A stretch of DNA of 33,093 bases from a virus (lineage: Duplodnaviria > Caudoviricetes): positions 1-33,093 of the IMG/VR virus record IMGVR_UViG_3300017722_004904; one strand, 5' to 3'. The stretch's first letter is position 1; the number at the start of each line of letters is the position of its first letter. The notes beneath the pieces are model-generated. The model searched no databases. It saw only the letters and a program-made list of their open reading frames with translations, and was not told the DNA's origin. A program made the translations under genes and the position numbers. Positions 1,849 to 27,659 of this stretch are shown piece after piece.

Positions 1849-2145
1849 CAAAATTGTTCATTGACGTATTACAAGTTTTTGTTTGGACCGGGGTTCGAAA
1901 CCCCGCCTCTCCACAAATCGCTCGCCACGATGTAAGTTTCTTTGTTCTTTAAAAATAAAGTGGTGGAGTCACCGAGTTATCGGTTGACCTAAATTTGAGT
2001 AGAGTATAAACTACGGTTAAGCCAATGCGAATAAAAACATGATTTGGTGGGTAGGCTATGCCTTCAAAAGAAGTTAGCCAAATGGGGAGGAATGGCTTTG
2101 ACAGCAATACACGAGTAGTACAGAGAACTTTTTTATTTTTTAAAC

Positions 2146-2193
2146 GGCAAATTAATTAGCCTTAACAACACTGAGCTTAGAGCTGCAGCGTAG
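2146..2193 (+). other. tmRNA proteolysis-tag reading frame (A)GKLISLNNTELRAAA*
   Basis: TAAAC immediately precedes the GGC resume codon; 15 codons ending GCT GCA GCG TAG; C-terminal Ala-Ala as in ssrA degrons. Confidence 0.85.
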
Positions 2194-2204
2194 TTACGAA
2201 ACTT

Positions 2205-2231
2205 GGGAGAGCGTAAATCTCCCTTTTTTTT
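2205..2231 (+). terminator. Intrinsic terminator of the RNA operon
   Basis: GGGAGA-GCGTAAA-TCTCCC followed by T8. Confidence 0.85.
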
Positions 2232-10097: not shown

Positions 10098-10138
10098 AAT
10101 ACATTTTATTTATGTTTTTAATAGAAATTACCGATACA

Positions 10139-10211
10139 AAACACAAATATAATAAATATTTAGTATCAATTATTTATATTAAAAACATAAATTTTTTATA
10201 CTTTTGAAAAA
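10139..10211. promoter_or_regulatory. Divergent promoter module, copy 2 (73 bp)
   Basis: TATATTTG (minus, 10144-10151), TACTTTTG (plus, 10199-10206), palindrome TTTATATT-AAA-AACATAAA at 10173-10191. Confidence 0.8.
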
Positions 10212-10228
10212 ATCAAAAAATAAGCAAT

Positions 10229-10357
10229 ATGAAATTTAATGATAACCTAGATGATGAAAGAGTTGAGTTTACTTTAAAACTAATTATGCTATTCCTTTTA
10301 TACGCATTAGTGATAGTAATTTTATTTGCAGCGATATGCTTATTGTGGATCAAATAA
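10229..10357 (+). CDS. Small single-pass membrane protein (42 aa)
   Basis: MKFNDNLDDERVEFTLKLIMLFLLYALVIVILFAAICLLWIK*; first ATG after the plus-strand promoter; below the ORF-track cutoff. Confidence 0.6.
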   Translation: MKFNDNLDDERVEFTLKLIMLFLLYALVIVILFAAICLLWIK

Positions 10358-10542
10358 AAAGTGAAATTGATAAGAAGTTTAAAGAATCAAGAGGTAACTG
10401 CGGAATTTACTTTGCTGATTTATGTATTAAAATTAATATTGATTTTGAACACATTAGACCTTTTTTAGAACAACTCTATAAAGAGAAATATTTTATAATT
10501 AGAGAGGGGTTGAATGGCAAGATGATATTTAAGAAAAAATAA
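10336..10542 (+). CDS. Small putative winged-helix DNA-binding protein (68 aa)
   Basis: Pattern GIYFADLC.KINI....IRPFLEQLYKEKYFIIREGLNG. Confidence 0.6.
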   Translation: MLIVDQIKSEIDKKFKESRGNCGIYFADLCIKINIDFEHIRPFLEQLYKEKYFIIREGLNGKMIFKKK

Positions 10543-10559
10543 TAATAAATATAATAATA

Positions 10560-10715
10560 ATGAAACTAAATTATTTTATAGTTCATAAAAATAAAAGTCC
10601 AAAAAAAGCCAAATATTCCAAGCCATACAGCAAACTACAGTTGCAAAAAATGCAAGAGTGTACTCAGTTTTTTATTGACGAAACAAACAAGATTAAAAAA
10701 AAATTATCACAATAA
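10560..10715 (+). CDS. Small basic hypothetical protein (51 aa)
   Basis: MKLNYFIVHKNKSPKKAKYSKPYSKLQLQKMQECTQFFIDETNKIKKKLSQ*; ends at the terminator hairpin. Confidence 0.45.
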   Translation: MKLNYFIVHKNKSPKKAKYSKPYSKLQLQKMQECTQFFIDETNKIKKKLSQ

Positions 10716-10741
10716 AAAAGCCCCACTCAATAACGGGGCTT
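10714..10741 (-). terminator. Intrinsic terminator of the capsid operon (possibly bidirectional)
   Basis: AAGCCCC-N10-GGGGCTT preceded by an A run. Confidence 0.7.
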
Positions 10742-10781
10742 CTTCGTGACTGGGAAAGTCAAACCAAACGAAAATGGTATT

Positions 10782-11837
10782 TTATGTGTTTTTAGCTTCT
10801 GTAATTTTATTTTTTATCCACTCTGGATCATTGTAATATCTTGGCGAAACTTCTTTTCCGGTTACTTTTTTGTATTCCTCTTTCAATGCTTCCATGTCTT
10901 CTTTCGCTGCATCAGCAGTTTCAGTAGCAGGATTGTTTTGCGTGTCTGCATTTTCTGCGGTTGTAGTACTCATTTCTGCTAATACTTCAGCTCTAATTTC
11001 AGCTTCTGTTTTTACAGGAGGTAAACTAGCTTTGTATTTAGCAATAGCCTCAGCTTCAATTTCTTCAACTGTTTTTCCTAATTCAACCGTTTCTTTTTCT
11101 GTAACATTTGAAAGTATAGCATCTGCTTTTTCGCCAATGCGTTGCAATACAGAAGTAGAAGACTCGTTTTCTTTTGATAAAAACTCACCAAGCTTATCTA
11201 CACCTTTTTCACCTTCAGCGACACGTACAATTACACCTCCATTTTCATCAGCCCACAAAACTTGTGTTTGAAACTGGTCGTACTTCACAATTCCTTTTGC
11301 AAAAGCTAACGCGGCAATAAAACGACCTTCGTAACCCGGCATGGCCATTTGTTCTAACAATGTTTTGCTATGGTTTTTAGCATACTTCAATAACTCTGAT
11401 TTGCATTTGAATTGCTCCCAATTAGCAGCATCTAATGAAATCAAGATCATAGCCATAGCTTTTAATCTGAAACCATCTTTTTCATTGATAATAGAATTTG
11501 AGGCTTTTGTTAATCTTTCAAAATCAAAAATTTCTTCTTTTGCAGTAGCTTCTTCGTTTACTAAAACGTATTTTTCTTTATACCATGGGTGCGATTGCAT
11601 CAGGTTGTTTAAAACCTTGTCCTCTGGATTTACTCTGATTTCGCCGTCATCAAACCAAATTGGTTTTGGTTTAGCATCGCCTTTGTGATCTTCCTTGTAA
11701 AAAGAACTAGCACCAGGAACGTATTGAATTTCTTTTAAAAGTTTTTCTCCATCAACTTCTCTTGAAACTAGAATACTTCTTAATGGTAATTGAAACGCTC
11801 CGCTTGTTTTCCCTGATTTTAATTTGTAAACATTCAT
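10782..11837 (-). CDS. Protein downstream of MCP, probable head-associated/auxiliary protein (351 aa)
   Basis: ATG start at 11837 preferred because the longer ORF-track start runs into the terminator; acidic linker plus small C-terminal helical domain; function from synteny only. Confidence 0.7.
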   Translation of the reverse strand: MNVYKLKSGKTSGAFQLPLRSILVSREVDGEKLLKEIQYVPGASSFYKEDHKGDAKPKPIWFDDGEIRVNPEDKVLNNLMQSHPWYKEKYVLVNEEATAKEEIFDFERLTKASNSIINEKDGFRLKAMAMILISLDAANWEQFKCKSELLKYAKNHSKTLLEQMAMPGYEGRFIAALAFAKGIVKYDQFQTQVLWADENGGVIVRVAEGEKGVDKLGEFLSKENESSTSVLQRIGEKADAILSNVTEKETVELGKTVEEIEAEAIAKYKASLPPVKTEAEIRAEVLAEMSTTTAENADTQNNPATETADAAKEDMEALKEEYKKVTGKEVSPRYYNDPEWIKNKITEAKNT

Positions 11838-14417: not shown

Positions 14418-14444
14418 TTTTATAGATTTTCGTTATAGTCTTTA

Positions 14445-14500
14445 CAAATGTAATCATATTTATTTATGATATGCAAATAAATTTATGTTTTAAACATAAA
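14445..14500 (-). promoter_or_regulatory. Capsid operon promoter with operator palindrome
   Basis: TACATTTG on minus strand (14445-14452); perfect TTTATGTT-TTA-AACATAAA at 14482-14500. Confidence 0.7.
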
Positions 14501-14532
14501 AAAGAGCAAGATTTTAAGTCTTGCTCTTTTTT
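14498..14532. terminator. Bidirectional intrinsic terminator
   Basis: AAAAAAGAGCAAGA-TTTTAAG-TCTTGCTCTTTTTT. Confidence 0.85.
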
Positions 14533-14551
14533 GATATGGTTTGTTGTATTT

Positions 14552-14857
14552 CTATTCTTTAAATATCGTCTGCAGGTGTGGCATGGCGTATTGATTCCGA
14601 CAATAATTATAGTTTAGATAATTGGGTACAGGTTCCGGTTCAGGCTCCTTTGCAACATCTAATTTAGCCTTGGGAATTTCAATGTTTCTGCGGACAACAG
14701 CATCAAACAACACTACTACAGTAATTTCATTTGATTTCTGATTAACAAATGTTTTTTCAATTTTTTCTTTTTCGTTTTTTAACTTAAAAGCCTTGACGGG
14801 TGTAAACGCTGAGAGCAAAAAACAAAACAATACCGATAACATAAATACTTTTTTCAT
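14552..14857 (-). CDS. Small exported protein, moron-like (101 aa)
   Basis: Signal peptide MKKVFMLSVLFCFLLSAFTPVKA; own upstream intergenic gap and downstream terminator. Confidence 0.7.
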   Translation of the reverse strand: MKKVFMLSVLFCFLLSAFTPVKAFKLKNEKEKIEKTFVNQKSNEITVVVLFDAVVRRNIEIPKAKLDVAKEPEPEPVPNYLNYNYCRNQYAMPHLQTIFKE

Positions 14858-19632: not shown

Positions 19633-20009
19633 TAATCTTTATTTTTTTGGGCGTACCTTTTGGTTGGGTTTTTTACTGTAGTTACTTTTTCTTCTGGCTC
19701 GGATTCTAGCTTGGCAATAGCTTCAAATAATTCTGGAGCATTCAATTCCATTTCAAGCATGTTGATTTTCTCCATCATTTTGTTAGCGTTATCAAGGGCT
19801 CTATCACGCACATTGATAAAAGCAAACATTTGCTGTTCAGCGGTGACTACTAATGAATCTCCGTTTTCGCCTTCTTTTTTAACCTCTTTAAAATCAGGTA
19901 ATGGAGCCGTTACTGCTGTAAAAATTTGATTTACTAATGTTTGGTATTTATCCACTAATTCAGGAATAGATTTCCTTCTACTCTCTTGTAATTTGCTGTC
20001 TTTACTCAT
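19632..20009 (-). CDS. Putative terminase small subunit (125 aa)
   Basis: Helical protein translationally coupled to TerL; inference from position. Confidence 0.5.
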   Translation of the reverse strand: MSKDSKLQESRRKSIPELVDKYQTLVNQIFTAVTAPLPDFKEVKKEGENGDSLVVTAEQQMFAFINVRDRALDNANKMMEKINMLEMELNAPELFEAIAKLESEPEEKVTTVKNPTKRYAQKNKD

Positions 20010-20587
20010 GCTGCTAAAACATCTTTAGTACGGATCCAATACAAGGTTTTGTTTTTAAAGAAAAATGGTATTCCGCACGTTGGGTTAATAAATATTTCTT
20101 GTCCGTTTTCTACGTCATTCTCTTCTAAAAAAGCATTGCGGTATTTTACGGTAGCCTTTCCTTTTATTGTTTTTTCTTTGTCAGTACCGGTGATTAATCC
20201 TGATGTTTTTTTTGGCTTTTCAGTAATAAATGAAACCATCAAATTATCGCCATAGCCTTTCCATTCAGCAGCATCGTTCTCACGGTACAGCACAATCATA
20301 TCAGGTTCGATTTTATACCACGACTTTTCTTTGCCTACTAAATGAATGCTTTCCTGCACACCTTCCTTGTAGATTTGTCTGTATAAAATGGTAGCGTCAA
20401 AAATCACTTGATACCCTTTTTTTAATATTGTTTTGCCTTCTGCTGGAACATTTACAATTGTTCCAAATCGATTTGCTGCTCTATCTCTTGATATTTTTTT
20501 ATCTACAAATAGTTCAATATCGCCAACTTCAATTGTGTCATTAAAAGCCTTTTCGACTTCTAGTATAAAATGATTTATTCCTTGCAT
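20006..20587 (-). CDS. Tandem GroES-like protein (193 aa)
   Basis: Two GroES-like units: FILEV...GTIVNVP...KKGYQVIF and GDNLMV...KTSGLI...ATVKY...GQEIF...IRTKDVLA. Confidence 0.6.
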   Translation of the reverse strand: MQGINHFILEVEKAFNDTIEVGDIELFVDKKISRDRAANRFGTIVNVPAEGKTILKKGYQVIFDATILYRQIYKEGVQESIHLVGKEKSWYKIEPDMIVLYRENDAAEWKGYGDNLMVSFITEKPKKTSGLITGTDKEKTIKGKATVKYRNAFLEENDVENGQEIFINPTCGIPFFFKNKTLYWIRTKDVLAA

Positions 20588-27395: not shown

Positions 27396-27659
27396 TCATA
27401 ATATCAGTTCTATTTCGGTTTTTTCTTGAAGGAATAAACATTTTTTGCCTTGGTACCCTATCGGTACTCCACAGTGTTCGTAGTGTCGCACCATATCGCC
27501 AATTTTCACATGCTCTACTTTTGGACCTATCATAATTACCTTGCCTTCGCGGGGTTGTTTTACGGCTTCTCCTGGTAAAAATATTCCAAAAGCAGTTTGT
27601 GTTACTGCCTCTGAAATTTCTATGAGTACTTTGCTTCGTATTAAACTTTTGATTTCCAT
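27396..27659 (-). CDS. groES: Co-chaperonin GroES-like protein (87 aa)
   Basis: KVLIE...TAFGIFLP mobile loop, GKVIMIG, VKIGDMV. Confidence 0.85.
   Translation of the reverse strand: MEIKSLIRSKVLIEISEAVTQTAFGIFLPGEAVKQPREGKVIMIGPKVEHVKIGDMVRHYEHCGVPIGYQGKKCLFLQEKTEIELIL

Follow-up and report, generated by a model that had tools for sequence, protein, structure and literature searches.

A circularly permuted tmRNA gene without pseudoknot 1 in a Flavobacterium-type podophage

Described permuted tmRNAs and the viral locus

Permuted tmRNAs are covered in Rfam by RF04321 (tmRNA_permuted) and by RF01849, RF01850 and RF01851, which represent Alphaproteobacteria, a betaproteobacterial group and cyanobacteria, respectively (PMC11915505). 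The coding pieces of two-piece tmRNAs typically keep pseudoknots 1 and 2 (pk1 and pk2), while plastid forms have few or none (PMC3985003). According to one review, tagging requires pk1, though a hairpin can substitute for it (PMC3968760). It should be noted that pk1 is typical of the bacterial two-piece lineages and lies outside the pairing definition of RF04321.

Permuted tmRNAs of phages are also already in print. Of the 133 phage tmRNAs counted by Buchholz et al. (2022), 53 were called two-piece, those of 13 crAss-like phages among them (PMC9004378, Table S1), and since Bacteroidota phages are thus represented, the earlier note on this DNA overstated the novelty of such a gene. These entries are automated ARAGORN calls, and the available portion of that paper gives neither a structural analysis nor an origin for the crAss-like ones. 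One entry listed there as ‘Permuted’, Cellulophaga phage phi4:1, looks like a false ARAGORN call, as RF04321 gives 15.6 bits at another place and the tag is implausible. A homologue in the Maribacter phage Panino is annotated merely as ‘transfer-messenger RNA SsrA’, in a paper that never uses the words ‘permuted’ or ‘two-piece’ (PMC11590407). We found no published analysis of the pk1-less family of Bacteroidota phages that is described below in a search confined to papers that need no subscription; the curated database of PMC11915505 (79 phage sequences) may hold members. The family is likewise undescribed in the available portions of PMC13120357, PMC12291355, PMC12656738, PMC8776804 and bioRxiv 10.64898/2026.10.21.760802.

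The window examined here, i.e. the whole 33,093-nt stretch of DNA that was analysed, is a linear virus record that is 46% complete and carries portal, terminase and virion genes. At 1849-2231 it contains a circularly permuted tmRNA gene that is under selection, as seen from covariation and the tag frame. The features of the locus are as follows:

1754-1761, + strand: TAnnTTTG element, which probably serves the precursor as the -7 box of a promoter of Bacteroidota type; the sole match in 1651-1860
1775-1848, + strand: tRNA-like gene with a non-canonical anticodon arm, abutting the acceptor piece; ARAGORN tRNA-Phe(aaa), Rfam tRNA 46.7 bits
1849-1913, + strand: acceptor piece, 65 nt, with the helix-2 3′ strands (1856-1883), T arm (1889-1905), acceptor 3′ strand (1906-1912) and A1913
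1914-2083, + strand: intervening sequence, 170 nt (17-266 nt across the family), predicted to be removed
2084-2128, + strand: tRNA-like 5′ part of the coding piece, with the acceptor 5′ strand (2084-2090), D loop (2091-2102) and helix-2 5′ strands (2103-2128)
2129-2145, + strand: unstructured linker of 17 nt in place of pk1, ending in the resume signal (2141-2145)
2146-2193, + strand: tag reading frame GKLISLNNTELRAAA*, defined by motif
2196-2223, + strand: predicted terminal mini-pseudoknot, in which 2196-2198 pair with loop 2212-2214 of the hairpin 2205-2210/2218-2223
2205-2231, + strand: intrinsic-terminator-like site, namely the hairpin of the mini-pseudoknot followed by the T tract 2224-2231

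The T arm, acceptor strands and helix-2 strands that had been read from this DNA before were all recovered at the same positions. The order of the tmRNA is reversed: the 5′ strand of the acceptor stem comes after the 3′ strand and the discriminator A1913. All seven pairs of the acceptor stem form, and pair 3, G2086.U1910, is of the G3.U70 type. Three pairs of strands make up helix 2 (1856-1859/2125-2128, 1866-1872/2115-2121 and 1879-1883/2103-2107). The coding piece is 148 nt long, and the proposed TAAAC-GGC resume site does open a tag with its resume codon at 2146. CCA is not encoded after A1913 in the window, and is encoded in 5 of 57 members of the family.

The earlier note had proposed both Infernal with permuted tmRNA models and ARAGORN as checks, and the two gave different answers. 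RF04321 matches 1855-2193 with 51.5 bits against a cut-off of 47 (E 3.2e-8), while RF01850 and RF01851 reach 18.2 bits (cut-off 84) and 18.7 bits (cut-off 70), respectively, and RF01849 is absent among the matches listed for the window. ARAGORN, with default as well as relaxed settings, missed the tmRNA of the window and reported the upstream tRNA alone. A wcaG match (19.5 bits against a cut-off of 42) was rejected as weak.

The locus shares with RF04321 and the bacterial two-piece lineages the order of the pieces, the 7-bp acceptor stem with G3.U70, the T arm, helix 2, the resume signal and an Ala-ended tag. It differs from the bacterial lineages in having no pk1, a predicted terminal pseudoknot of just 2-3 bp and no linked smpB, and in being phage-borne. 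The tmRNA of Panino (PP540027.1, 27557-27889) belongs to the same family, with the helix-end motifs, a spacing of 41 nt from D loop to resume codon, a 16-aa tag and an abutting upstream tRNA, but its intervening sequence is 39 nt long and it sits in a large tRNA cluster. The crAss-like phage cr10_1 (MT774382.1) also has the layout of the family (RF04321 49.6 bits, 42-nt spacing, tag GNNFVTDYTQLAVA), though it belongs to a phage order different from that of the window phage.

Covariation, tags and the missing pseudoknot 1

Five pattern scans of viral contigs, together with Panino, cr10_1 and the loci L325 and L411, yielded at least 113 permuted matches, at least 75 of them distinct. Of these 75, 5 were too short; among the remaining 70, 14 with proteobacterial ANDE..ALAA-type tags were set apart, which left 56 for analysis; L007, among these, has the same sequence as the window. 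A scan of genome contigs with an over-loose pattern, covering 8 of 64 parts, gave 2 true copies among 120 loci.

Covariation in related phages, which the earlier note had named as a check, was found in both the acceptor stem and helix 2, and the tag frame is conserved. Acceptor pairs 5 and 6 were scored in 52 loci, the two halves of which had been located by motif alone: all 104 cells are Watson-Crick, against a mean of 41 and a maximum of 56 with shuffled partners. Helix 2 was said to join the two pieces, and across the family the cognate duplexes are indeed the stronger ones, averaging -14.0 kcal/mol versus -9.4 kcal/mol for non-cognate duplexes (best of 5000 permutations, -10.8); the cognate partner is the single best in 14/56 members and among the top five in 34/56. 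The tag ends in [AVSTF]A in 52/56 members when read in the motif-defined frame, versus 1 and 2 in the other frames. Since the members of the family are related, shuffles overstate significance, and these figures are counts rather than probabilities.

A held-out set of metagenome loci, picked by the acceptor piece alone, behaves in the same way. The 5′ piece lies downstream in 16 of 18 new loci, 29 of 32 cells are Watson-Crick with the remaining 3 being G.U, the short spacing without pk1 is present in all 14 readable loci, and 11 of 14 tags end in [AVST]A. These loci, together with the covariation and frame conservation, refute at the family level the notion that the locus is a decayed or chance set of tRNA-like fragments without function. 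The silence of ARAGORN, the margin of just 4.5 bits over the RF04321 cut-off, the fold of the window precursor (z -1.84) and the degenerate look of the upstream tRNA would fit such a notion, to which we give next to no credence.

The first residue of the tag is Gly in 40/56 members and the last is Ala in 53/56. All listed members have an A at the position that corresponds to E. coli A86, on which the reading frame mainly depends (PMC2481249); the finder required this base. ARAGORN recovers only 36 of the 56 members, and phage tmRNAs are thus undercounted. The family occurs in more than one group of phages: in the 50 of 68 viral records that were covered, a homologue of the window capsid occurs in 4 (2 of the 10 near-complete ones). 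SmpB was found in none of the 50, of which 10 are at least 90% complete. The window itself was said to hold no smpB, and none appears among its 31 ORFs scanned against PHROGs, nor in the longer identical L007 record.

The distance from the D loop to the resume codon is mostly 37-46 nt in the family and 43 nt in the window. Elsewhere it is ~68-82 nt in those one-piece genes of Bacteroidota for which the tag call is plausible, 63-67 nt in the alphaproteobacterial forms, about 65 nt in the betaproteobacterial ones (counted by eye) and 52 nt in two cyanobacterial rows. Fold prediction gives no structure for the linker 2129-2145, not even a hairpin, and pk1 is thus absent.

The earlier note had left no room for any of pk1-pk4 and had placed a terminator after the tag. 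The absence of pk1 stands, but the 3′ hairpin is likely more than a terminator, since its loop (2212-2214) is predicted to pair with 2196-2198 in a tiny pseudoknot, of 3 bp in the window and 2-3 bp in the family. Among the 27 members that have the hairpin, 14 have a T tract after it. The loop dinucleotide is complemented just 3′ of the stop codon in 27/27 (shuffled mean 22.3, maximum 26), the pairing reaches 3 bp in 18/27 (shuffled mean 7.7, maximum 14), and the loop swaps CG, CT, CC and CA are each matched by the upstream partner. These pairs were counted by script, the MAFFT alignment being too gappy. Under a strict family-wide rule, by which some registers are spurious and some cases are missed, the mini-pseudoknot is predicted in 25/56 members (control mean 13.5, maximum 19) and in 7/13 held-out loci (mean 4.0, maximum 6). 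A few members (L127, L023) have an A+T-rich stem in the 3′ element with a separate terminator behind it.

The prophage copy, its host and the origin of the permutation

The capsid protein of the window is 46% identical to those of Cellulophaga phages phi46:3, phi18:3, phi13:2 and phi19:3, of which phi46:3 is classified under Pachyviridae, and the window phage is a Flavobacterium-type podophage. No tmRNA match was obtained in phi46:3, which is among its closest cultured relatives. The window also carries two GroES-like co-chaperonin genes (20006-20587 and 27396-27659).

A close copy of the tmRNA (L325), which is new and came from a genome scan, lies in Flavobacterium caseinilyticum AT-3-2 inside a prophage of ~69 kb that is integrated at a tRNA-Arg gene, in a host with its own one-piece ssrA and smpB. 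The prophage is colinear with the window: 21 of 34 window ORFs have matches in the 120 kb searched, and the capsid proteins are 85% identical. Window positions 1849-2231 are 78.6% identical to the prophage copy, compared with 66-78% for the flanking coding blocks; the acceptor piece is identical at 57 of 65 nt and the coding piece at 125 of 140 nt. The copy scores 45.1 bits with RF04321, just below the cut-off of 47. Two intergenic regions of the window, 10098-10781 and 14418-14551, are also conserved in the prophage (e.g. 10119-10210, 10709-10859 and 14488-14568), and these stretches are possible regulatory or RNA elements.

At one end of the prophage is tRNA-Arg(ACG), at ~273,050; at the other, next to a gene of integrase type, the 3′ end of that tRNA is repeated over 17 nt (342,500-342,516). 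Since the DNA immediately beyond belongs to a conjugative element that carries a serine recombinase and PRTRC genes (G001:C12 342,483-360,000), we infer the prophage edge on that side. The tmRNA of the host itself is an intact one-piece ssrA of 397 nt at 127,330-127,726 (134 bits, tag GENNYALAA), ~145 kb from the prophage edge, whereas the phage tmRNA lies mid-prophage among virion genes. Since integration is at tRNA-Arg and the host ssrA is intact, the phage tmRNA does not serve as the attachment site, nor does it stand in for a broken host gene. An attachment-site role was proposed for the tmRNA of Panino (PMC11590407), a 39-nt stretch of the T arm and acceptor end matches Flavobacterium sequence at ~85% identity, and the close relative that carries the tmRNA copy is temperate; nevertheless, with the prophage bounded by a repeat of the tRNA-Arg end and not of ssrA, the reading as an attachment site is contradicted for the lineage of the window, and we regard either role, attachment site or substitute for a host ssrA broken by integration, as very improbable.

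That Bacteroidota hosts use one-piece ssrA agrees with this host-type genome and with 38 of 41 sampled genomes, in which the tmRNA is one-piece. A permuted match was obtained in 1 of 151 Bacteroidota genomes (strict filters, 14 candidates scored per genome), and this match is the prophage itself; among 401 Flavobacterium genomes, F. caseinilyticum AT-3-2 is the only one with a full-length match.

We also considered where the permutation comes from, using 114 alignment columns, with FastTree on 126 rows and a quick IQ-TREE run on 52 hand-picked rows. The best trees place the family beside the Bacteroidia one-piece genes, away from the alphaproteobacterial, betaproteobacterial and cyanobacterial forms, with support of 0.914 (FastTree), SH-aLRT 91 and, after RY coding, 84 for 10 of 12 rows, though A+T bias may pull either way. 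At the positions flanking the D loop and T arm, 53, 49 and 54 of 56 members have the Bacteroidia bases; these bases and the Gly resume codon are shared with Flavobacterium one-piece ssrA (RF00023) and with phages phi38:1 and phi14:2, while the Flavobacterium gene differs in being 397 nt long and unpermuted, in having pk1 and a pseudoknot region downstream, and in its 9-aa tag. phi38:1 and phi14:2 (L258 and L259) carry one-piece tmRNAs whose tags are probably 30 and 38 aa, exceeding the ARAGORN calls. The T loop of the window, TTCGAAA, is canonical, unlike the alphaproteobacterial loop (GGCRG.. in 24/24 rows). Sharkady and Williams (2004) reportedly argued for convergence of two-piece tmRNA layouts.

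On these grounds we lean towards a permutation independent of the alphaproteobacterial, betaproteobacterial and cyanobacterial forms. The earlier note had claimed independence, and the best trees agree, but approximately unbiased (AU) tests leave a shared origin unrejected: p is 0.31 for a single clade of all permuted forms, 0.315 for the viral, betaproteobacterial and cyanobacterial forms together and 0.0585 for the viral and alphaproteobacterial forms, all 11 tests being non-significant, favoured groupings included. The permutation could instead have been inherited from a pool of two-piece tmRNAs that phages carry and that is linked to these bacterial forms, the tRNA-like part having later been tuned to Bacteroidota hosts. 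Such an inheritance is plausible, if short of even odds, and compatible with a tagging function. The 14 viral loci with ANDE..ALAA tags nest with or beside the family in the trees and have its helix-end motifs (12 and 14 of 14, versus 0 and 1 of 29 one-piece Bacteroidota rows); 8 of the 14 have pk1-length spacing and 6 are without it. In addition, the short-stem-first layout predicted for the 3′ element is, by eye, that of the 3′ pseudoknot in alphaproteobacterial, betaproteobacterial and cyanobacterial coding pieces.

These 14 loci are probably of the kind found in the Melnitz-type marine myophages, which, like the window phage, encode a permuted tmRNA (PMC9004378). They differ from the family in that the hosts or the relatives of these use two-piece tmRNA, the tags are proteobacterial, 8 of 14 keep the pk1-length spacing and the terminal pseudoknot is longer. 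L140, L148, L149, L184, L214 and L215 have ANDE..ALAA tags without pk1 and a longer, alphaproteobacterial- or betaproteobacterial-like 3′ pseudoknot, and are possibly intermediates or cases of parallel loss of pk1. A broader proposal, which we consider rather unlikely, is that an old phage lineage of two-piece tmRNAs runs across unrelated Bacteroidota phages and proteobacterial myophages, with an RNA of ~210 nt that is free of pk1 and a basic 15-residue tag that alters degradation, and that this lineage may have moved the permutation between bacteria.

The proposed precursor and its likely function

The element TAnnTTTG, which we take to be the Bacteroidota promoter consensus, immediately precedes the acceptor piece in 9 of the 56 members, compared with 14 occurrences in 1249 control windows. 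Twelve of the 56 have a tRNA flush against the acceptor piece, and in the window the tRNA-like gene at 1775-1848 likely supplies the 5′ end of the acceptor piece on processing. Its anticodon arm is predicted to be capped by GC-GAAA-GC, without a normal 7-nt loop. This odd tRNA is nearly identical in L411 and degenerate in the prophage copy, and may be a processing signal or have another role.

Within the intervening sequence, the first half (1916-1996) shares 94% identity with the prophage, more than either mature piece does, and has two hairpins; it was not found elsewhere in the viral contigs, and its fold is no better than that of shuffles (z -1.31). One member, L003, holds an intact tRNA-Arg(TCT) (1250-1324) within its intervening sequence, and a subgroup (L158, L161, L279 and L280) combines intervening sequences of 17-20 nt with tags of 36-37 aa and a longer 3′ structure. 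Right after the tmRNA terminator of the window is a 108-aa ORF (2251-2577, + strand) that is absent from the prophage and has no match in PHROG or Pfam.

We put at roughly 0.75 the probability that the locus yields a pk1-less permuted tmRNA in two pieces, charged by host enzymes with alanine, and that this RNA uses host SmpB to free and tag stalled ribosomes alongside the one-piece tmRNA of the host. Transcription would start at the promoter and end at the T tract, giving a single precursor that comprises the tRNA, both pieces of the tmRNA and the intervening sequence between them. By analogy with known two-piece tmRNAs (PMC11915505, PMC3985003), the host would process it with RNase P cutting at 2084, the 3′ end being trimmed back to A1913 and CCA added; its enzymes would then alanylate the RNA via G3.U70, with the two pieces staying paired, and host SmpB would deliver the RNA and set the frame at 2146, the tagged product going to proteolysis. 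To judge from the layout, opening of the loop may remove the need for a ring of pseudoknots, with a 17-nt single strand in place of pk1 and the pseudoknot of 2-3 bp capping the coding piece. The reported requirement of tagging for pk1 or a substitute hairpin (PMC3968760), neither of which is predicted here, speaks against this function.

The benefit to the phage would likely be extra rescue capacity in lytic growth; a part in RNase-based abortive infection, as suggested in the earlier note, is conjecture. However, host SsrA is stable throughout T4 infection of E. coli (PMC9697503), so that it is not evident why a spare copy would be needed, and the fact that the closest cultured relatives, such as phi46:3, manage without a tmRNA also counts against such a need. 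The tags of the family are unlike the host tag, and a different fate of the tagged proteins is thus possible: 15 aa in 31/56 members, R or K at position -4 in 46/56 and VA, SA or TA ends in 24/56, versus the GENNYALAA type. It is conceivable on this basis that the RNA, once made and charged, serves mainly to redirect trans-translation of the host, by competing for SmpB and either altering degradation through its longer basic tag (the products being spared or passed to another protease) or damping host tagging. Competition for host SmpB is implied by the lack of a phage SmpB in the records covered, and a tag-less form from phage DS6A inhibits tmRNA in E. coli (PMC11915505, PMC4131195). Yet the open frame with its Ala-type end fits a degradation tag and not a decoy, and the resume signal is kept, so that we hold a mainly redirecting role to be improbable. 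A tag-less decoy of the DS6A type is ruled out by the presence and conservation of the tag frame.

Tagging of stalled ribosomes by a pk1-less RNA would make the family a natural, selected test of whether trans-translation needs pk1, for a long time considered the only pseudoknot that it requires; the family is near the smallest design of a tag-coding tmRNA. It also bears on why phages carry a tmRNA despite the host copy, and on how often the gene has been permuted. Both questions are directly testable, given that a cultured Flavobacterium with a one-piece ssrA and an smpB of its own carries a close copy in a prophage.
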